Sequence record: PZ386977.1
DNA: 64,000 nucleotides
Strand: one strand, 5' to 3'
Source of the DNA: a phage
The position numbers and the translations under genes were made by a program. Within the stretch, counting starts at the first letter, position 1. The number at the start of each line of letters is the position of its first letter. Shown here in pieces: positions 7,926 to 59,807 of this stretch. The notes beneath the pieces are model-generated. The model made no database searches. It worked only from the letters and a program-made list of their open reading frames with translations, and was not told the origin of the DNA.

Positions 7926-7950
7926 AATATTCTCTTCAGTAGATTCCTAG

Positions 7951-8001
7951 GGCACTATTACTAAAGACCATATAATCTATCATCTTATGTGTAATAGTGC
8001 C
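7951..8001. repeat. perfect 11-bp inverted repeat with 29-nt AT-rich loop
   Basis: GGCACTATTAC ... GTAATAGTGCC; loop contains TATAAT; lies between the glycosyltransferase stop and the 66-aa ORF. Confidence 0.6.
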
Positions 8002-8017
8002 TCAGGCGATTCAGGAT

Positions 8018-12337: not shown

Positions 12338-12862
12338 TCATTTTAGCAAAATAAAATCAACTTGTTCTGCCAATGAACGTCTAAACATTAATTGACAACT
12401 TCCGAGGATGAAATCAGGTGCTTCATAGACCGCGATGTAGTATCCTTTAGCTTTCAAGAGTTCAACATCCACCTGGTCATCAAACCATGCATAAACCGCG
12501 TCAACACTTTCAAATCCAAAATAGAACCCTTGAGCCCAATCTTCGTTCAATTCAAATGTGTGCTCAATTCTATAGTATCTTAAGATATTTTGTTCAAGGA
12601 GTTTGTCTTCATTTACTGTAGGACGATTAGGGACATTATAGTTGTCGCCGTGATGGTAGAAGTTACCTGAGAGTATTCCATGCTTATCAAGGAACTCCCA
12701 TGTTTCTTCAGAGTTGTCGGTGCCCGACCAACCGTAAGGTGAGCGAGGTTCTTTATTCCAGGAGATTTCCCAAATTCTGACGGCTTTACCATCTTCGATA
12801 GCAACTCCTGGTAAAGATTCACGTTGAGTACAAAAACTACGTTCTACGCGGTAAACTAACAT
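12338..12862 (-). CDS. hypothetical protein (174 aa)
   Basis: ATG ORF; its GAGGAGA RBS lies in one arm of a 12-bp inverted repeat. Confidence 0.5.
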   Translation of the reverse strand: MLVYRVERSFCTQRESLPGVAIEDGKAVRIWEISWNKEPRSPYGWSGTDNSEETWEFLDKHGILSGNFYHHGDNYNVPNRPTVNEDKLLEQNILRYYRIEHTFELNEDWAQGFYFGFESVDAVYAWFDDQVDVELLKAKGYYIAVYEAPDFILGSCQLMFRRSLAEQVDFILLK

Positions 12863-12866
12863 ATTA

Positions 12867-12917
12867 TTCTCCTCTAGTCGATAGATTTATAGTATCAAAA
12901 CTAGAGGAGAAGTAAAC
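12867..12917 (-). promoter_or_regulatory. early promoter (GTTTAC-17-TACTAT) embedded in perfect 12-bp inverted repeat that includes the RBS
   Basis: TTCTCCTCTAGT ... ACTAGAGGAGAA; the promoter-distal arm contains the Shine-Dalgarno of ORF 12338..12862. Confidence 0.6.
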
Positions 12918-18305: not shown

Positions 18306-18886
18306 TAAAAATTCAACATTTTTAAATGAATGATTTTGTATAGTCGAGATAAAGGGTCATATTCTAAGTCTTCAATTTCTACAATCTCAAATCTAGAGAT
18401 ACCTGAGACCATGTATTCTTGTTCAGATTCAATCATATCTAGGACGTCAACACGTTTTTCTTCCATAACATGCTTAGGGTTCTTTCCGGCGAGTACAATG
18501 TTAACCATGTTTTGGTAGTAATCGAAAATGAACGGAGCATTCCTGAGACTAAGAATAGTGTACGTTTGATATTCCCAACTCCCAGAGAACTGTCTGGCCG
18601 TACCAAAGTCTGTTGTAAACGATGTTACTCGCCCGGGAGACCAATGACATCCAACAGAAAGAAGGGAAAGACGTTCTACTTCTTCTGGAGTTACACCACG
18701 GTAGAGTTCTACTGGTACTGTAGAAGTCATATGCTTACGAACAAGATGGTCTAATTCATAGTGGAAATCTGGGTCTTCCTTAGAATCAGTGCAAGCCCAG
18801 AGAATGTTTTGTTCTTGTTTAGTGAATTTATCATCAATTAGTGCTGCGAGATATTCGCGTTCTTGAAGTTCAGATTGACATGTCAT
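18305..18886 (-). CDS. modB: ADP-ribosyltransferase ModB-like
   Basis: 193 aa; paralog of the preceding ORF; T4 modA-modB tandem arrangement. Confidence 0.6.
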   Translation of the reverse strand: MTCQSELQEREYLAALIDDKFTKQEQNILWACTDSKEDPDFHYELDHLVRKHMTSTVPVELYRGVTPEEVERLSLLSVGCHWSPGRVTSFTTDFGTARQFSGSWEYQTYTILSLRNAPFIFDYYQNMVNIVLAGKNPKHVMEEKRVDVLDMIESEQEYMVSGISRFEIVEIEDLEYDPLSRLYKIIHLKMLNF

Positions 18887-18913
18887 GATAGACCTCCATT
18901 TAAAGATAAGCCT

Positions 18914-18942
18914 ATCATAACACGAGAGGAGGGAATGTAAAC
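18914..18942 (-). promoter_or_regulatory. early promoter (GTTTAC-17-TATGAT)
   Basis: upstream of modB. Confidence 0.5.
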
Positions 18943-19291: not shown

Positions 19292-19748
19292 CGAGATAAA
19301 AACTAGCAGGTTCAGAGAATGTTTCTAGCGCTACACCTTTTGTCTTAAAAAATTTCCAAATAGCTCGTTGCAAATGGATTAAATCTGCTAATGATGTAAT
19401 AAAGTATTTTTTGGCAAAATACTTATGGTCTCGCTTTTCAAACAGGTCTAAACGCTTTTCAGGATTCGCATAAACAGCATTTTCTGTAGATTCGTACCCT
19501 AAATCCTTTATGCCTTCTTCAAGACTAAACGGAGAATTTTTAGAATGAGTAATAGCTCCAACTCGCTCTACACGAATTTTGTAACCTTTAGGAATCTGCA
19601 ATTTGCAGAATTCTTCTACGATATATTGCGGATTATTTAGACTTTTGTTAATGAGAATAGCTATTTCTAGTGGAGTCTTATCTTCTACTGGTATATGTTT
19701 AAATGACTTGGCTTCAAGCAAATACATTTTAAATAACATAGCATCCAT
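19284..19748 (-). CDS. hypothetical protein (154 aa)
   Basis: ATG ORF, co-directional. Confidence 0.5.
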   Translation of the reverse strand: MDAMLFKMYLLEAKSFKHIPVEDKTPLEIAILINKSLNNPQYIVEEFCKLQIPKGYKIRVERVGAITHSKNSPFSLEEGIKDLGYESTENAVYANPEKRLDLFEKRDHKYFAKKYFITSLADLIHLQRAIWKFFKTKGVALETFSEPASFYLGE

Positions 19749-19954
19749 TATAATTTCCTCAATGGTTCACCCATATAAAGTTTTACAATACGTTCGCCTT
19801 CATCTTCGACGAGCTTTTCTTCATGTTTCTGGAATTCTTTAGCCATATTCTCTTCAAGAACATCCAGCCAATCTTCTGGACCGACACCATCGTCCCAGCT
19901 TTTAAACCATTTAACTATCTTGTTCATTCGCAGCTCCCTGAGCTTGAACCACAA
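19748..19954 (-). CDS. hypothetical protein (68 aa)
   Basis: ORF in operon context. Confidence 0.4.
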   Translation of the reverse strand: MWFKLRELRMNKIVKWFKSWDDGVGPEDWLDVLEENMAKEFQKHEEKLVEDEGERIVKLYMGEPLRKL

Positions 19955-20160
19955 TCAGAATAACTTGACCCAGAATCACCAGGCCAAGACGATACGTATG
20001 AATGATTATAACTTGAAGAGTTTGAAGCAGACTTAGGACGAACAACTTCTTCCATCATGCCGTCGCCAATGTATTCCCAACTTTTTTCGTGTGTATCAGG
20101 AATAGGCATCATACCTTCGCCTGGTTTAACAGCAAATAACTTCTTCAGTATCGTAAGCAT
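19924..20160 (-). CDS. hypothetical Ser-rich protein (start trimmed, about 78 aa)
   Basis: internal ATG with AGGA RBS; Ser/Gly/Cys-rich C-terminal tail. Confidence 0.35.
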   Translation of the reverse strand: MLTILKKLFAVKPGEGMMPIPDTHEKSWEYIGDGMMEEVVRPKSASNSSSYNHSYVSSWPGDSGSSYSDCGSSSGSCE

Positions 20161-20353
20161 TAATTGTTCCTCGAACAAAACGAACACCGCCATCATCCCA
20201 ACGGATTTCAGCATTAAATTTGACGTCTTCACCATCCATCATGAATGAGTGTACGACTACATCATCATAATATCCAAGACCGTATTTCAACGAAACTTCT
20301 TGAGCAATCAAAGCACCTAATGTGTTATTAGGTTTAATCCAACGATTTAACAT
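20126..20353 (-). CDS. hypothetical protein (75 aa)
   Basis: ATG with AAGAGGAGA RBS downstream of an early promoter. Confidence 0.45.
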   Translation of the reverse strand: MLNRWIKPNNTLGALIAQEVSLKYGLGYYDDVVVHSFMMDGEDVKFNAEIRWDDGGVRFVRGTINAYDTEEVICC

Positions 20354-20381
20354 ATTGTTCTCCTCTTGAGTAAGTAAGAAT

Positions 20382-20411
20382 ATCTTAACACAGTTTTTAG
20401 TGGATGTAAAC
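20382..20411 (-). promoter_or_regulatory. early promoter (GTTTAC-18-TAAGAT)
   Basis: minus-strand hexamers upstream of ORF 20126..20353. Confidence 0.45.
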
Positions 20412-20421
20412 TCTAGAAACG

Positions 20422-20447
20422 AAAAAAGGAATCCCGAAGGATTCCTT
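20422..20447 (-). terminator. rho-independent terminator after soc
   Basis: AGGAATCC-TTCG-GGATTCCT hairpin followed by TTTTTTCGTTT on minus strand. Confidence 0.7.
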
Positions 20448-20454
20448 AAATTAT

Positions 20455-20691
20455 TTAACCACTTACTGGTGTAGGGGTAAACATTGCAGCGTTCTTAGTA
20501 CGCCAATCTGCTGCATCAGAAACGACATCAGAATAAGCTGCATTTTCTGATGGAAAGATTTGGTAATGAGAATCTGCAATCCGATGTTCGTTTGAATAAA
20601 TCTCAAACGGAACAGAAACTTCCATACCTTTTACTTCTTCGCCTTCACCAGCAGGATGCGTAAAGGTTTTGATGTTTACATAACCACCCAT
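20455..20691 (-). CDS. soc: small outer capsid protein
   Basis: 78 aa; GYVNIKTF...AHYQ.FPSE.AAYS resembles T4 Soc; late promoter upstream and strong terminator downstream. Confidence 0.8.
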   Translation of the reverse strand: MGGYVNIKTFTHPAGEGEEVKGMEVSVPFEIYSNEHRIADSHYQIFPSENAAYSDVVSDAADWRTKNAAMFTPTPVSG

Positions 20692-20722
20692 AATTAACTC
20701 CTTTGTTGTTTAATTACAGGTG

Positions 20723-20730
20723 TATTTATA
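20723..20730 (-). promoter_or_regulatory. late promoter TATAAATA upstream of soc
   Basis: exact T4 late-promoter octamer about 30 nt upstream of soc ATG. Confidence 0.6.
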
Positions 20731-20736
20731 ACTTAA

Positions 20737-21258
20737 TTAGTAACCATTATCCTGACGTTCAAAGTTGTGTTGGTTTTTCAAGTAGTAAAGTTTAAAGATT
20801 TCTTCAGCAGAAAGACCAAGACCTTGGAACATATTTAGAACGAAATGCAGAATATCAATCATTTCAAATTTAATTTCAAGCTGGTCTTCAGGAGACAGTT
20901 CATCGATACGACGATTTCGATATTCAGCATGTTGTGCTTTCCATGGCTTCCATACACTGCTGGCGGCTTTTTCACCATTGCTCATACCACCAAGTGAAGT
21001 CAGCAGTTCACGGAATTCATCATCAATATAATCTTTCTGATTACGCAGCCAATCAACAACATCACCAGCAGTAGCCAATTCATCAGGATGTTTGTTATGT
21101 TCAGGCTTGTCATTTGCCAGACGAACCTGTAAAGATTTCTGCATATCAAGCATTACCTGAAGTGGGTCTTTATCTTCGTGAATCAGAGCATTAAAATAAG
21201 CTTCTTCTGCTTTATCAACACCAGAAATAAGTTGTGAACATTCGTTAAAGTGTGCCAT
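20737..21258 (-). CDS. 56: dCTP pyrophosphatase (dCTPase/dUTPase, MazG-like)
   Basis: start trimmed to MAHFNEC; about 173 aa; matches T4 gp56 by size, position and recalled motifs. Confidence 0.75.
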   Translation of the reverse strand: MAHFNECSQLISGVDKAEEAYFNALIHEDKDPLQVMLDMQKSLQVRLANDKPEHNKHPDELATAGDVVDWLRNQKDYIDDEFRELLTSLGGMSNGEKAASSVWKPWKAQHAEYRNRRIDELSPEDQLEIKFEMIDILHFVLNMFQGLGLSAEEIFKLYYLKNQHNFERQDNGY

Positions 21259-21346
21259 TATTTTTCCTTTCAATTCAGTATAAGAGAGTTAATTCTAACA
21301 TTAATTTTATAAAGCGTAATAAATAATAGGTAACTAAGGAGATATT

Positions 21347-21544
21347 ATGTTTAAACTTACATCGTTAATCAACGCTATTAAAGGCAATAAAAAGAAAACT
21401 GCTATCGCCGCAATAGTTGTAGGTGGCATTATTTCATGGAACTTCGGGATTGCACCATTGTTAGTTGCCCATGGTATTATAGTTCCTTCTGTTCCATTGG
21501 ATACCGTAGTTGATTTGGCCTTTGCTATTATAGGACTTGTTTAA
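21347..21544 (+). CDS. small membrane protein (65 aa), plus strand
   Basis: ATG with strong AAGGAGA RBS; two predicted TM segments; one of only two plus-strand genes. Confidence 0.5.
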   Translation: MFKLTSLINAIKGNKKKTAIAAIVVGGIISWNFGIAPLLVAHGIIVPSVPLDTVVDLAFAIIGLV

Positions 21545-22563
21545 ATCTTCGAATAACGAGATAATCTCATTTTAGCATGCAACCCACTTGAAATATTCTG
21601 TTTCATATATTCTAAAATTTCTTGTGGTGTTGCATTTTCTTTCATTACCATATCATTCACATCCTTTGAACTCCATGGAGCTCGGTCCCAGAACATAACA
21701 CGTTCACCTGCATCAACTAATCGCTTCATACGAGCTATAGTATCCGGATGCCTAGGTTCATTATCCATTACCCATACCCGACGTTCTTTAAATGGTACCA
21801 CATCTAAATCTATCGAGCCGCCTGTAATAGCGATTGCATTGGGTATGAATAAACTATCAATAGGACCTTCCATTACCCAGACGTCTCCTTCCTTAACACG
21901 TTCAACACCATAAATTTTTGTTGCAGACTCAAACGCTTTAATAGTGATATATTTCTGAGGAGCATCTTTACGAAGTGCACGTCCTTGGAATGACTCGGCC
22001 TTCCCGTCTTTATTAAAAATAGGAATCACTAAACGTGGCTCGGGAATCTCTTTCTTATACGTGCCTGGTTGAATCTTGTTGACCAATTTAGGCCATTCTA
22101 ATGTGAACCATAATCTGTTCCACGATTCTTTAGGAATACACCGAGACTTAACATATTTCACAATAGGATGCTCTTCAGGCAACTTGTCCAGGCGAGAACA
22201 AGACGGCAAAGAATTTATAGTCTTTTTCTCCGGTTCTGGTTTATGTTCAGGAACCTTTTCAATCTTTGGTTCCATTCTAGCTTTTTCTTTACGAACTTCC
22301 ATTAGATATTCGCGATAAAGCTCTTCATCATACTCTTTTAAGTATCCGGAAATCGTATTATGATATTGGCAGTTATAGCAATGCACATTACCCGGAGTAC
22401 CGCCATAATACCATCCGCGAGCTTTCATTGCATCTGTCTGAGAGTCGCCACAAACTGGACATCGAAATGTTAATTTAAATGTGCTTGAATTATTGATTTG
22501 TCTAAAACGAGGTAGGTGAGAAAACGCACGATAAGCAAATTCGTTATCTATCCATTCAGCCAT
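21541..22563 (-). CDS. 61: DNA primase
   Basis: 340 aa; N-terminal zinc-binding CPVCGDS...CYNC and TOPRIM-like core; size and synteny with T4 gp61. Confidence 0.85.
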   Translation of the reverse strand: MAEWIDNEFAYRAFSHLPRFRQINNSSTFKLTFRCPVCGDSQTDAMKARGWYYGGTPGNVHCYNCQYHNTISGYLKEYDEELYREYLMEVRKEKARMEPKIEKVPEHKPEPEKKTINSLPSCSRLDKLPEEHPIVKYVKSRCIPKESWNRLWFTLEWPKLVNKIQPGTYKKEIPEPRLVIPIFNKDGKAESFQGRALRKDAPQKYITIKAFESATKIYGVERVKEGDVWVMEGPIDSLFIPNAIAITGGSIDLDVVPFKERRVWVMDNEPRHPDTIARMKRLVDAGERVMFWDRAPWSSKDVNDMVMKENATPQEILEYMKQNISSGLHAKMRLSRYSKI

Positions 22564-25036: not shown

Positions 25037-25249
25037 CTATTTTAAACTTTTGCGAAATTTGCGTTTTTCTTGACGAATCTGTCGTTTAGTCGGACGTACA
25101 GCAAATTTAACGAAGTCCACTTTGCCGTGTGGAAACTTTTCAGATGCTTCACAGTCCATCATTAGTTCCCATCCTTCCAGAATAAGAGCTTTCCATTGCG
25201 TAGTTGATGCAAATTCGTATGTCGATGGTTTAAACACAGTTGAATACAT
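25037..25249 (-). CDS. hypothetical small protein with C-terminal VRPTKRQ motif (70 aa)
   Basis: paralog of ORF 54197..54394. Confidence 0.45.
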   Translation of the reverse strand: MYSTVFKPSTYEFASTTQWKALILEGWELMMDCEASEKFPHGKVDFVKFAVRPTKRQIRQEKRKFRKSLK

Positions 25250-25250
25250 A

Positions 25251-25442
25251 TTATCCTCTTAAATCGGCTTCAAAAACTTTCTCGTCATTAACAAATGCTT
25301 TAACTAATGCTTTGTTCACTTCAGCAAGTTGTACCGCAACCCACTCGATTTCTTCGCGATCACCTGATAACATGATATCTTTAGTGAACATCTCGCCGCT
25401 TTTAAACCAACCGATAAAAGTAACTTTAGTTAATTTGCTCAT
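25251..25442 (-). CDS. hypothetical protein (about 63 aa, start trimmed)
   Basis: ORF 25251..25463; internal ATG minimises overlap. Confidence 0.4.
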   Translation of the reverse strand: MSKLTKVTFIGWFKSGEMFTKDIMLSGDREEIEWVAVQLAEVNKALVKAFVNDEKVFEADLRG

Positions 25443-25756
25443 ATTTCCTCGCAAAATGCCCATTCAGCGTGATAAACTGTAGCACCTTTAGTATCATTCA
25501 TTTGAACTACGTCTACCGGAGAAATTACTCGATAGAGACGTGGTTCACCTCCATAAGAGCGTGCTGCTCGTCCTGCATAAATCTTTGCTAAACCGATATC
25601 TTCAGTAAAGAATACACGATTCAAGTTTTTCTTACGCCCAGTTTCAGACAGAACTCCTGTTTCCTCAGGAGGACAAAGCATGTTTTCGATGTTAGCTGAA
25701 CTACTTGAACCGTGATAAAAAATCTTAAATTCTGCTTTACAATCGATGGTTTTCAT
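25439..25756 (-). CDS. hypothetical protein (105 aa)
   Basis: ATG with GGAGAA RBS that lies in one arm of a 14-bp inverted repeat. Confidence 0.5.
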   Translation of the reverse strand: MKTIDCKAEFKIFYHGSSSSANIENMLCPPEETGVLSETGRKKNLNRVFFTEDIGLAKIYAGRAARSYGGEPRLYRVISPVDVVQMNDTKGATVYHAEWAFCEEI

Positions 25757-25760
25757 TTTG

Positions 25761-25811
25761 TTCTCCAGTAGTTGATAGGTCTATAATAACACAACTACTG
25801 GAGAAGTAAAC
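25761..25811 (-). promoter_or_regulatory. early promoter (GTTTAC-17-TATTAT) inside perfect 14-bp inverted repeat that includes the RBS
   Basis: TTCTCCAGTAGTTG ... CAACTACTGGAGAA; classic arrangement for RBS sequestration in read-through transcripts. Confidence 0.6.
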
Positions 25812-26186
25812 TTAAAAACGTAATTTAGATATATCTGCGTTGATTTCGTTTTGGTTTGCGTCGTATGCAATTAAACGAACCGCTTTAGATGGGTCATTCA
25901 ATGCATAGAAATGATGGAACATTGCTCGAACGATATCGCCATTTACGAGTTCTACCTGGATAGGAGAACCTTTTTCGAGTTGGAAATGTTCATAAGCTTT
26001 GATGGTTCGTAGATAATCAAGTTTTTGATTTCCAGCTCCAACTATTTGTACGATACGTTTGCCCATGTTTTCCATACGAGATACAATAGTTTTAGGAGCA
26101 AGAATAACGTAGGTTGCCAGCGGAGAAACTACTTCAACAGTTGTGTTTTCGGTGATTGCAGTAAAAATTGCTTGAGACATATTCAT
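25812..26186 (-). CDS. hypothetical protein (124 aa)
   Basis: ATG ORF with AGAGGAAA RBS. Confidence 0.5.
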   Translation of the reverse strand: MNMSQAIFTAITENTTVEVVSPLATYVILAPKTIVSRMENMGKRIVQIVGAGNQKLDYLRTIKAYEHFQLEKGSPIQVELVNGDIVRAMFHHFYALNDPSKAVRLIAYDANQNEINADISKLRF

Positions 26187-26215
26187 AATGTTTTCCTCTT
26201 GGTTGGTGTAAGTTC

Positions 26216-26245
26216 ATCATATCATGCTTAGAGGAAGATGTAAAC
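26216..26245 (-). promoter_or_regulatory. early promoter (GTTTAC-18-TATGAT)
   Basis: upstream of ORF 25812..26186. Confidence 0.5.
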
Positions 26246-26252
26246 CCCGAAA

Positions 26253-26275
26253 GGAGACCGAAGTCTCCTTTTTAT
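26253..26275. terminator. terminator-like hairpin, stronger in plus orientation
   Basis: GGAGAC-CGAA-GTCTCC; T-run TTTTTATT follows on plus strand, only TTTC on minus; just downstream of gene 41 stop. Confidence 0.4.
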
Positions 26276-27717
26276 TAAAATTTTAACTCATTGGCTAAGC
26301 TATCTAGGTCAGCACGTGTTGCTTTGGCTTTACCTACGCGTTCCGTGCGATTCACCTCTGCCTGACGCATCTGAGCACCTGCGTTTTCATTTACTGTGTT
26401 AGGTGTGTTCATGCCTTCTTGCTCAATCTCAACCCATTTCTGATTGCCTTTACGTACACCCATCAAGAACTTGTTCCACTTATTCTTATCACCATATCGT
26501 GATTTGATTTGTTTGATAAGTTGTTGTTCAGCTTGTGCAAGTTCTTCGGTTTCAATTACGGCCAACATGAAATCTGCCGTTGCTGGTAAACCTGCTGATT
26601 CTGCAATATCACTCATGTTCATGTCTGAAGCATCCCATGCTGCACGTCCTACTTGGGCTGCAGTCCATAGAACTGTTTCAGATTCTACTGCTAATGCACG
26701 AAGTTCTTCTGCGATAGCTTTAACTAATGTGTAACTATTTTCAGTGTAAACTCTGATACGACAAGACCCACAAATACCTAAGTAATCAACCATGATTACA
26801 GATGGCACAAAGTTCTTCTTAAGTTTTAACTCATTAAGCAATGCACGGAATGTATTAGCATTAGCTCCACCAGTAGGATACTGTTTAACTACTAAACGTC
26901 CTAATGTTGTTTTTGAACGCCATTTTTCCATCTTGGCTTTATATTCAGCATAAGATACGTTACCATCATCGATATCATCGAGTGATACGTCAAGCATGTT
27001 TGCGTCTATACGCTTAGCACAAACTTCTTCAGCCATTTCCATGGAAATATAAAGAACATTATGTCCTGTTTGAAGATAATCTGCAGCAAGTGAACAAAGG
27101 CCTAAAGATTTACCAACGTTAACACCGGCCATTAAAACATTCAGTGTACCTGTTTCTGCACCACCTTTGGTGATTTTATTAAGAATGTTTAATTTGAACG
27201 GGACCTTACGTGCTTTATTTAGATAAGAAAGCCAGCGTGCTTCGTAGTCTTCCATCCAGTCATGACCAACATAACTATCAAACGAAATTGAAAGTGCTTG
27301 ACGCATAATATCAGGAATAGCTCCTACGTCAGGCATTTTCTTGTTACGTTGTTCTGGAGGTAGTTCAGCATTAGACTGAATCTCAATGATTTTGGATGTA
27401 GCATTATACATCGCTTTTTGCTGAACATATTTCTCAGTTTCTTTAACCAACCATTCGTGGTCTTCAGGAGTATCAGCCAATTTTTCAATTAGGTCCGAAG
27501 TTCCTTTATATTCGGCTTCAGTTAAAGAACTGTTATCTAAAGCCACCTTTAATGCATTGATAGATGGCATTGCATTATATTCGTTAACGTGGCTCTTTAT
27601 AATTTTAAAGACATTTTTTGCCGGTCCACGCTCAAAGTAATCAGAATCCATATAAGGCCAGACCTTAGAAAAATAAGCCTGGTCGTATACTAGATGAGAC
27701 AAAATAATTTCTACCAC
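26275..27717 (-). CDS. 41: replicative DNA helicase (DnaB-like, primase-helicase partner)
   Basis: 480 aa; GTG start with AAGGAG RBS; N-terminus VEIILSHLVYDQAYFSKVWPYMD; RecA-like core; T4 gp41 synteny. Confidence 0.85.
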   Translation of the reverse strand: MVEIILSHLVYDQAYFSKVWPYMDSDYFERGPAKNVFKIIKSHVNEYNAMPSINALKVALDNSSLTEAEYKGTSDLIEKLADTPEDHEWLVKETEKYVQQKAMYNATSKIIEIQSNAELPPEQRNKKMPDVGAIPDIMRQALSISFDSYVGHDWMEDYEARWLSYLNKARKVPFKLNILNKITKGGAETGTLNVLMAGVNVGKSLGLCSLAADYLQTGHNVLYISMEMAEEVCAKRIDANMLDVSLDDIDDGNVSYAEYKAKMEKWRSKTTLGRLVVKQYPTGGANANTFRALLNELKLKKNFVPSVIMVDYLGICGSCRIRVYTENSYTLVKAIAEELRALAVESETVLWTAAQVGRAAWDASDMNMSDIAESAGLPATADFMLAVIETEELAQAEQQLIKQIKSRYGDKNKWNKFLMGVRKGNQKWVEIEQEGMNTPNTVNENAGAQMRQAEVNRTERVGKAKATRADLDSLANELKF

Positions 27718-48759: not shown

Positions 48760-48822
48760 GATATTTTCCTCATTTTAAGACGATAGGAAGATAATAACAC
48801 GTCTTCCTATCGTTGTACATTA

Positions 48823-49711: not shown

Positions 49712-49983
49712 GGCTTAATTTCCTTCGCAATTGAACAGAAGATACCACGGTCACAAATCATTTCACCAATTTCTGGATATTTGATCGAACGGTACCAAAC
49801 ATCCAGGCTTGAAACTCTGGTTATCTGTACTGCATTACCATTGACAGAATAGTACTGGTCAACCTTAATTTCTTTATCTTCAATTGTCATTTTATTTTCC
49901 TCTATAGCAGTTTGTTTAATCTTAACACATCTATCGAGGATGTAAACTGTTTTATGAAAATATTTTTGATTTGAGAGGGGCAC
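49708..49983 (-). CDS. hypothetical protein (91 aa)
   Basis: ATG ORF. Confidence 0.45.
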   Translation of the reverse strand: MPLSNQKYFHKTVYILDRCVKIKQTAIEENKMTIEDKEIKVDQYYSVNGNAVQITRVSSLDVWYRSIKYPEIGEMICDRGIFCSIAKEIKP

Positions 49984-59223: not shown

Positions 59224-59751
59224 TTATGCGTGAACCGTCTTTAAACGTTCTTCAAATTTCCGAAGAGTACTAATACGTTCTGCTTTCTGTTTTGTATAGT
59301 TTGCAATACGTTCTGAAGTGAGAGCGTATCGTTCGTTTACTGTTTCTTTCATGAAGTCAGGGATTTCACGAGAAGCTTTAATTTCATCAAACTTATCGAG
59401 TACTGCCTGGTCTTCAGCGATTAAATTTTCGTACATCTCGATATCTTTCTTGATAAACTCGATATCTTCCTGGGTTACTTTGGATAAACGAGATGCTTTA
59501 TCCTTTTTGTACTGCTCGTTAGTTTCACGAGACCAGAATAATGTACGTTTTTTGTTAGTGTTTTTGTAGACTTCCACAATTCCAACTGAATCGATGATAA
59601 CAATCCAATTCCAGTGAGATTTGAAAATCTGACCTCCGTCCACGGTAATCTCGTTACCATAAGCAACATCGTTAAAGAACTTGCTTTGTGCTTCAGATTT
59701 AAATTTACCGTCGTTATAATTTACCAGGTTGAAAATATCTTTAGCGTTCAT
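59224..59751 (-). CDS. hypothetical protein (175 aa)
   Basis: ATG ORF with GGAGG RBS inside promoter/stem-loop cassette. Confidence 0.5.
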   Translation of the reverse strand: MNAKDIFNLVNYNDGKFKSEAQSKFFNDVAYGNEITVDGGQIFKSHWNWIVIIDSVGIVEVYKNTNKKRTLFWSRETNEQYKKDKASRLSKVTQEDIEFIKKDIEMYENLIAEDQAVLDKFDEIKASREIPDFMKETVNERYALTSERIANYTKQKAERISTLRKFEERLKTVHA

Positions 59752-59778
59752 GTTTTACCTCCAGTAGTTGATAGGTCT

Positions 59779-59807
59779 ATAATAACATAACCATAGACCT
59801 TGTAAAC
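59779..59807 (-). promoter_or_regulatory. early promoter (GTTTAC-17-TATTAT) with AGGTCTAT/ATAGACCT inverted repeat
   Basis: PeSL-like cassette. Confidence 0.55.

Follow-up and report, generated by a model that had tools for sequence, protein, structure and literature searches.

An early promoter nested in a Shine-Dalgarno-masking inverted repeat: a candidate cis-acting RNA device upstream of RB69ORF040c in an RB69-like phage

In this work we describe an element of a T4-type phage in which a strong early promoter and the ribosome-binding site (RBS) of the gene behind it are built into one inverted repeat. The element is located directly upstream of RB69ORF040c (ORF040c) in a stretch of 64,000 nucleotides (PZ386977.1, hereafter the window), and a second copy stands upstream of a motB.2 homolog; all window features given below are on the minus strand. 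RNA reading through from upstream folds into a hairpin over the Shine-Dalgarno (SD) sequence, RNA started at the embedded promoter is predicted to lack one arm and folds open, and the pairing between promoter spacer and SD is under selection, as judged from sequence comparison. We lean towards the interpretation that the element is a cis-acting RNA device which couples the translation of ORF040c to its own promoter, and the downstream gene is probably translated only from transcripts of that promoter. It is an early-promoter version of the RBS-masking trick of T4, with a geometry matched neither by the hairpins of the e and soc type nor by the promoter-early stem-loop (PeSL) as described.

Anatomy of the element and folding of its transcripts

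On the minus strand the layout of the first copy (copy 1) is TAA-GTTTAC-TTCTCCAGTAGTTG-tgttattatagacctat-CAACTACTGGAGAA-caaa-ATG. The -35 hexamer GTTTAC (25806-25811), read from the sequence and present as well at about 26 early-promoter-like sites of the window, is followed immediately by the 5' arm TTCTCCAGTAGTTG (25792-25805), which includes the anti-Shine-Dalgarno TTCTCC and fills the first 14 of the 17 spacer nucleotides. The 17-nt loop tgttattatagacctat (25775-25791) holds the TGt of the extended -10 (25789-25791), the -10 box TATTAT (25783-25788), both found in the sequence and by promoter scan, and the predicted +1 at about A25776, which the usual 7-nt distance places 2 nt before the 3' arm. 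The 3' arm CAACTACTGGAGAA (25761-25774) carries the Shine-Dalgarno GGAG at 25763-25766 and ends 4 nt before the ATG (25754-25756). An earlier note on this DNA had recognized here a promoter inside a perfect 14-bp inverted repeat with the SD in the distal arm, and the sequence and the repeat scans agree with it; its span of 25761-25811 places the element rightly but includes the -35 hexamer, the repeat itself being 25761-25805. With the loop limited to 45 nt, the window has a single perfect inverted repeat of 14 bp or more, against 0.04 expected per dinucleotide shuffle, and three of 12 bp or more, against 0.31 expected from such shuffles.

The same architecture, with a 12-bp stem, had been noted at 12867-12917, where the layout indeed matches that of copy 1. 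In this second copy (copy 2) the -35 GTTTAC (12912-12917, from the sequence and the promoter scan) is followed by the 5' arm TTCTCCTCTAGT(T) in the promoter spacer (12899-12911, with the 12 Watson-Crick positions at 12900-12911), a loop (12880-12898) with TGa, the -10 TACTAT (12889-12894) and a predicted +1 at about A12882, and the 3' arm (G)ACTAGAGGAGAA (12867-12879, Watson-Crick part 12867-12878) with the SD GGAG at 12869-12872. The 12 Watson-Crick pairs are extended by a thirteenth, T.G pair (12899/12879), which is G.U in the RNA. The gene under copy 2 is the motB.2 homolog (12338-12862, 174 aa, ATG at 12862). By the criteria for T4-type early promoters (-35 GTTTAC, spacer of 17 +/- 1 bp, TGn, TATAAT-like -10, AT-rich upstream) both copy 1 (GTTTAC, 17-nt spacer, TGt, TATTAT) and copy 2 (GTTTAC, 17 nt, TGa, TACTAT) belong to this type, about 26 members of which lie on the minus strand of the window. 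A AGACCTATCAA-like downstream consensus is common to copies 1 and 2 and others, and the two copies also have GTTTACTTCTCC...GGAGAA and the promoter-proximal consensus in common.

The two kinds of transcript fold very differently. In read-through RNA, with 60-140 nt of upstream sequence included, the hairpin was both the minimum free energy and the centroid structure (-25.1 kcal/mol for copy 1 and -26.2 kcal/mol for copy 2; z = -3.6 and -3.4 against shuffles), the hairpins themselves accounting for -20.5 and -19.5 kcal/mol, while RNA beginning at the predicted +1 was no more structured than shuffles. The cost to free the region from the SD to the AUG (-13 to +3) was 19.3 kcal/mol in the read-through RNA of copy 1 versus 3.0 kcal/mol in the promoter-initiated one, and 18.2 versus 4.8 kcal/mol in copy 2. 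Among 100 crudely called genes of the window, no start had a lower unpaired probability in the long context than that at 25756, and the start at 12862 was one of the six lowest. The dependence of translation initiation on RNA structure is established; because of this, and of the 100-fold effect of the T4 gene e hairpin discussed below, the difference of 13-16 kcal/mol should be enough to silence the long form. Folding had been suggested by the earlier note as a check, and it put the hairpin in the read-through RNA and not in the promoter-initiated one; sequestration of the RBS of 25439-25756 in read-through RNA is thereby supported at the level of folding. Of the accompanying claim, that promoter transcripts begin inside the loop with a free RBS, the open fold was borne out, and the position of +1 in the loop stays a prediction from the promoter geometry.

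The masked SD is at the same time a candidate processing site. In many T4 early mRNAs the SD is cut by RegB, acting together with ribosomal protein S1, at single-stranded GGAGRAYARAA (Durand 2006, PMC1702504), and RegB requires single-stranded RNA (PMC1702504). The sequence GGAGAACAAAA of copy 1 (25756-25766), which includes the SD as well as the first base of the ATG, matches this consensus at 11 of 11 positions, and GGAGAAUAAUA of copy 2 at 10 of 11. Strict matches to GGAGRAYARAA occur only three times in the 64 kb (63931, 61226 and 25766), in each case at the SD of an early gene. According to the folding, the site is single-stranded in the promoter-initiated RNA only, where cleavage is predicted. 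In T4 both the regB SD and the motB.2 site are cut by RegB in vivo, the latter being GGAU, one of two GGAU sites cut in vivo (PMC1702504), and both of these genes show the hairpin design; RB69 has an active RegB homolog. We infer that RNA started at the promoter first serves in translation and is afterwards inactivated by RegB, and that read-through RNA is closed to ribosomes and RegB alike. The RegB literature treats the sites as single-stranded, whereas here such a site is paired with a promoter spacer on read-through RNA, an arrangement not described in the accessible RegB literature.

Conservation and enrichment of the spacer-to-SD pairing

Pairing between the promoter spacer and the SD was kept in four Tevenvirinae genera, in front of orthologous as well as unrelated genes, with differing sequences and with compensatory changes. 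The promoters of the motB.2 orthologs all keep the hairpin with different stems, the protein identity between T4 and the window being about 33%. The stem is TTCTCCTCTAGTT/GACTAGAGGAGAA in the window and TTCTCCTCTGGTT/AACCAGAGGAGAA in the RB69 reference, the two genomes, about 98% identical, differing here by a compensatory change from A-T to G-C; in IME08 (Dhakavirus) and its relatives it is TTCTCCTCATG/CATGAGGAGAA, and in T4, T6 and teqskov UCCUCGGU.UAGUUGUGG/CCAUAGCUACUGAGGA, with the -10 in an 8-nt loop. RNAalifold found 2 pairs with compensatory changes in nine motB.2 orthologs, a count taken from a MAFFT alignment in which T4 and T6 were misaligned.

The design is not confined to these genes. 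In scans of IMG/VR, T4-like contigs showed it in front of no fewer than 10 gene families unrelated to one another. The stems, unrelated in sequence, measure 8-16 bp, the 5' arm nearly always begins at nt 6-7, and 3-6 nt separate the end of the 3' arm from the ATG; one instance is denV of Salmonella phage CGG4-1 (Gelderlandvirus). T4 itself has the design not only at motB.2 but also at regB (15 bp, two of them G.U), denV (10 bp) and nrdC.8 (13 bp), the starts of these last three being at 12740, 15355 and 3885, respectively, in the segment 50001-76000 of AF158101. In a set of 142 promoter elements gathered irrespective of their spacer sequence, helices of at least 10 bp over the SD were found in 6.3%, compared with 0.86% for shuffled spacers and 1.45% for spacer-swapped chimeras; the chimeric control is inflated by shared anti-SD sequences, and only helices of 10 bp or more are clearly enriched. 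Over shuffled spacers the enrichment amounted to 7- to 67-fold, and anti-SD tetramers concentrate in spacer nt 0-7.

It was also considered whether the structure belongs to the RNA or to the DNA. The T4 stems of regB, motB.2 and nrdC.8 depend on G.U pairs, and the complementary strand loses 7-11 kcal/mol (sense versus antisense -20.9 vs -12.2, -23.7 vs -12.4 and -17.9 vs -10.7 kcal/mol, respectively). Since these stems rely on G.U and are unstable on the complementary strand, the comparison points to a sense-strand RNA structure for the element class, the ortholog of copy 2 included. Both the covariation and the reliance of the T4 orthologs on G.U pairs speak against a DNA operator or cruciform. 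An intrinsic terminator was rejected: there is no U-tract, the 3' arm being followed by CAAAAUG (copy 1) or UAAUAUG (copy 2), the loop of 17-21 nt is long, the stem is of moderate GC content, and the terminator scan did not report it. Intrinsic terminators, UUCG hairpins among them, are likewise stable intergenic hairpins located where an upstream gene ends, but the element differs from them by the missing U-tract and the longer loop; for comparison, a genuine UUCG terminator stands 450 nt upstream of it (26253-26268).

Weaker pairing of the same kind was seen at other early promoters of the window, namely those of a 60-aa ORF (49890-49947, TCCTCGATAG/CTATAGAGGA, 9 of 10), modB (18886-18942, CCTCC/GGAGG) and the upstream gene RB69ORF041c (26186-26245, TTCCTCT/AGAGGAA, 7 bp).

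Proposed mechanism, related systems and rival explanations

The window locus is 98.3% identical to positions 19713-21712 of Escherichia phage RB69 (Mosigvirus), with the minus-strand gene order gene 41, RB69ORF041c (ORF041c), element, ORF040c, dmd and 61.4/tifA. Gene 41, the helicase (26275-27717), has directly at its 3' side the UUCG-tetraloop terminator hairpin (26253-26268), annotated as a terminator in phage MM02, and this hairpin restricts the read-through coming from gene 41. Downstream of it follow the -35 of the early promoter of ORF041c (26240-26245, promoter scan) and ORF041c itself (25812-26186), whose TAA stop (25812-25814) adjoins the -35 of copy 1; between ORF041c and the copy 1 hairpin the terminator scan found no terminator. 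The ORF041c early promoter, 430 nt upstream of copy 1, is the main source of read-through, so that the principal read-through RNA is an early one too. In a further 18 T4-like contigs, other genera included, ORF040c comes directly after gene 41, behind a GC-rich intrinsic terminator, and there the pairing is just 5-6 bp, (A/T)TCTCC/GGAGA(A/T); two lineages have the identical 3' arm CAACTACTGGAGAA without a 5' arm. Within the ORF040c family the 14-bp stem occurs in the RB69 type only, where the inserted ORF041c adjoins the -35 without a terminator. This context fits a function on read-through RNA, because the long stem occurs where a gene adjoins the promoter with no terminator between; the correlation of stem and terminator holds within the ORF040c family only.

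The following mechanism is proposed. The spacer of a strong T4-type early promoter would carry, right after the -35, an anti-SD together with 6-8 more complementary bases. A polymerase starting at this embedded promoter would begin about 2 nt before the 3' arm, and the resulting transcript, without the 5' arm, would have a free SD and could be translated immediately. RNA coming from upstream, mainly from the ORF041c early promoter with some escape past the gene 41 terminator, would hold both arms and form a hairpin of 13-14 bp (about -20 kcal/mol) in which the SD is buried up to 4 nt before the AUG, and the gene would remain silent. As the free SD is also a RegB/S1 site, translatable transcripts would be cut in the SD as RegB accumulates, while the hairpin form would resist both ribosomes and RegB. 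The net effect would be a short, promoter-limited protein pulse, with no additive expression from tandem early promoters.

Hairpins with a comparable logic are known at T4 e, soc, 49 and I-TevI, as well as at Aeh1 mobE and T4 segB, where the RBS is sequestered and transcripts of an internal promoter lack the inhibitory strand; the gene e hairpin, which has such an internal promoter, lowers translation about 100-fold (PMC3014915). Like these, the present element buries the SD and/or AUG in upstream-initiated transcripts, here according to computed folds, and has its promoter within the hairpin-coding DNA, so that its own transcripts are without the 5' strand, here on the basis of the predicted +1. 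In the e/soc type, however, the internal promoter is a late one (TATAAATA) and translation is delayed, whereas the promoter of our element is a sigma-70-type early promoter, no TATAAATA is present in the copy 1 sequence, and the 5' arm is placed exactly in the -35/-10 spacer. Read-through RNA at our element is early or middle too, and instead of an early/late delay the element would separate own-promoter RNA from upstream-promoter RNA, resulting in insulation and a pulse. The parallel with e and soc drawn in the earlier note therefore stands as far as the masked RBS and its release by an internal promoter are concerned, but the promoter is early and so is the source of the read-through. In T4 the classical gene e hairpin is visible beside the early-promoter type.

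The second related class is the PeSL, in which an intergenic AT-rich region, a strong early promoter and a stable stem-loop are combined with SD and start codon (Arbiol 2010, PMC2839356; Comeau 2014, PMC4122927). PeSLs were described in RB49/phi1, T4/PST and KVP40/nt-1, RB69-type phages being outside those analyses, and they are repeated in variable early regions beside lineage-specific small ORFs (PMC2839356, PMC4122927). In the common subclasses the stem falls in the interval from the -35 to the -10 or overlaps the -10 box, and in all five the whole stem-loop is upstream of the transcription start and was read as a terminator or attenuator and a recombination linker (PMC2839356). Our element shares with them the sigma-70-like early promoter, the stable stem-loop, the intergenic position and the SD and ATG at the 3' end; it differs from all five subclasses in that the loop contains the -10 and the predicted +1, and the 3' arm is downstream and covers the SD. 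Neither of the two PeSL papers discusses translation or RBS masking (PMC2839356, PMC4122927). The anatomy given in the earlier note was right and its RNA-level reading is well supported in silico, but the kinship with the PeSL class and the perfect RegB/S1 site had escaped it. The early-promoter variant is undescribed in the 2010 reviews and in both PeSL papers, the search not extending to the T4 promoter papers of 1989-1998 and Miller et al. 2003.

Several points weigh against the proposed coupling. We infer the +1 from promoter geometry, and the translational switch as well; a transcription-start data set for T4 or RB69 was searched for and none was found. Many early promoters of the window, and T4 dmd, ipI and ipII, carry a different hairpin, with the 5' arm in the spacer and the 3' arm over the -10/+1 region, which leaves the SD free; the existence of such hairpins implies that promoter-embedded stems have a further function unrelated to the RBS. 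Both window copies have perfect Watson-Crick arms with equal folds on both strands and are uninformative on RNA versus DNA, and a family-wide test of sense versus antisense stability on 32 elements was not significant, only the T4 cases being informative. The association of a long stem with the lack of an upstream terminator was not significant either over 206 elements (1/21 vs 24/185, Fisher). Finally, copy 1 of the RB69 reference (AY303349) has lost 1 nt of the spacer (16 nt), and in its 3' arm an A is replaced by C without compensation (CACCTACTGGAGAA), which leaves 11 contiguous bp and means that the innermost pairs are not strictly required; MM02 and two IMG/VR contigs agree with the window at copy 1.

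Among the rival explanations, the element could be a PeSL in the original sense, i.e. a stem-loop serving as the terminator/attenuator half of a mobile cassette and as a recombination linker which shuffles small ORFs, the SD being incidental. It is supported by an RB49 stem whose effect in lowering lacZ expression equalled that of the rrnB T1 terminator (PMC2839356), by the lineage-specific nature of ORF041c and ORF040c, which in comparison with T4 are inserted between 41 and dmd, by the GTTTACTTCTCC...GGAGAA and promoter-proximal consensus shared by the window copies, and by the other promoter hairpins of the window, which do not touch the SD. Nevertheless we regard it as unlikely: the absence of a U-tract, the loop of 17-21 nt and the moderate-GC stem, missing from the scan, are poorly suited to intrinsic termination, and if Rho polarity caused any attenuation, the masked RBS would be at its origin. 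Moreover, the described stems stand upstream of the start, while here the 3' arm is in the 5' untranslated region, always over the SD, and ends 3-6 nt before the ATG; recombination requires sequence identity and not an inverted repeat, yet the stems covary. Quite unlikely is also a role as RegB shield or RNA stabiliser, in which the stem hides the GGAG from RegB or blocks 3' exonucleases so that dmd and tifA/61.4 stay expressed, and silencing of ORF040c is a side effect. The 11/11 RegB/S1 match of the SD and the single-strand requirement of RegB agree with it, as do the dmd SD within the end of ORF040c and the T4 dmd-tifA operon, an anti-toxin unit under a homologous early promoter (PMC9391042). 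The design is nevertheless found at genes without obvious downstream cistrons in need of protection (T4 regB, denV), T4 motB.2 uses GGAU/GAGGA, and the T4 hairpin between 41 and dmd leaves the dmd SD exposed; besides, such a role and translational masking are not mutually exclusive.

Translational coupling, in which the SD stays masked by the hairpin as long as no ribosome completing ORF041c melts the stem, and ORF040c is translated on the read-through RNA only in step with ORF041c, is in our view very unlikely. A short distance from stop codon to stem is typical of coupling by structure melting, and in copy 1 the upstream stop codon is just 6 nt before the 5' arm. However, a ribosome that terminates there would get no further than the first few nucleotides of a 14-bp stem, the gap is 10 nt in copy 2 and about 12 nt in T4 motB.2, so that the proximity is not conserved, and the full promoter in the loop would be left unexplained. 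Little credit can be given to a DNA-level element, either an operator for a dimeric protein or a cruciform which tunes the promoter: although the window arms are perfectly palindromic around the -10, with sense and antisense folds equally stable, the arm sequences vary between copies and orthologs while the pairing is kept, which speaks against a sequence-specific protein, the G.U-dependent T4 orthologs lose 7-11 kcal/mol on the other strand, and loops of 17-21 nt disfavour cruciform extrusion. Chance or hitch-hiking, by which a functionless repeat would persist through a recent duplication of a promoter cassette, is strongly disfavoured and hardly credible. The copies do share the promoter consensus, and SD and anti-SD are low-complexity purine/pyrimidine runs; against it stand the expectation of 0.04 repeats per window, the compensatory changes, the conservation of the design across genera at 33% protein identity and the 7- to 67-fold enrichment over shuffled spacers.

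Should the coupling of translation to the own promoter be true, it would make translation depend on which promoter produced the RNA. The early regions of T4 contain many tandem strong promoters, and most genes are present on several overlapping RNAs. The element would explain how closely packed early genes escape additive over-expression and how certain products are limited to the opening minutes of infection. It would also join three topics that have been studied apart, namely the architecture of early promoters, hairpins masking an RBS, and the cleavage of SDs by RegB. Since the design is present in T4 (regB, motB.2, denV, nrdC.8), for which promoter and RegB data exist, the idea is directly testable there. 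In the annotation and engineering of T4-like phages it should be considered that an altered promoter spacer may unmask translation from upstream transcripts.

As a tentative and rather doubtful extension, the Tevenvirinae might possess an immediate-early class of 'one-shot' units, in which the SD is both a RegB/S1 site and the complement of its own spacer, only primary transcripts are translated and then destroyed through RegB, and read-through RNA is invisible to ribosomes and RegB. Its members may be T4 regB, motB.2, denV and nrdC.8, and ORF040c and motB.2 of the RB69-like phages. If this were true, each gene would have a fixed, promoter-metered pulse and downstream genes such as the dmd-tifA anti-toxin pair would ride on RegB-proof long transcripts; the shut-off of early protein synthesis in T4, which still lacks an explanation, would gain a cis-encoded layer.

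The controlled gene and other hairpins of the window

The gene with the masked RBS, ORF040c (25439-25756, 105 aa, phrog_2110), is the first of the anti-defence operon dmd-tifA. Its stop codon and the start codon of dmd overlap in ATGA, an SD belonging to dmd lies within the 3' end of ORF040c, and 61.4/tifA follows at 25037-25249. Both ORF041c and ORF040c are absent from T4 at the site between 41 and dmd. The Pfam search with ORF040c gave only a sub-threshold match to the Arr-ms rifampin ADP-ribosyltransferase (E = 0.083), PHROGs places it in a family of unassigned function, and the single-sequence AlphaFold model was unusable (pLDDT 41). The protein carries a conserved FYHGS motif, and the operon that its gene opens, dmd-tifA(61.4), is an anti-toxin unit; the protein may likewise act in anti-defence or modify the host.

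PeSL-like promoter hairpins which leave the SD free were recorded at the window promoters 63979, 24293, 3706, 3194, 59807 and 48813. In the first five of these the spacer is complementary to the conserved -10/+1 region, e.g. TAGGACTA...TAGTCCTA and AGGTCTAT...ATAGACCT, and the hairpin ends before the SD. The one at 48780-48813 is a perfect 12-bp inverted repeat, ACGATAGGAAGA/TCTTCCTATCGT, with TGtTATTAT in its 10-nt loop; it is of the PeSL type overlapping the -10 and leaves free the SD of the next gene (GAGGAAA, ATG at about 48758). At the nrdC.8 homolog (59227-59807) the promoter hairpin overlaps the -10, while in T4 and in one further contig the same gene has the SD-masking hairpin; judged from these sequences, the two hairpin types can be interchangeable at one gene. 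A further inverted repeat of 16 bp with 2 mismatches (7946-8006; 11 bp perfect, 7951-8001) and a 29-nt loop is located upstream of an SD and ATG at about 7924.

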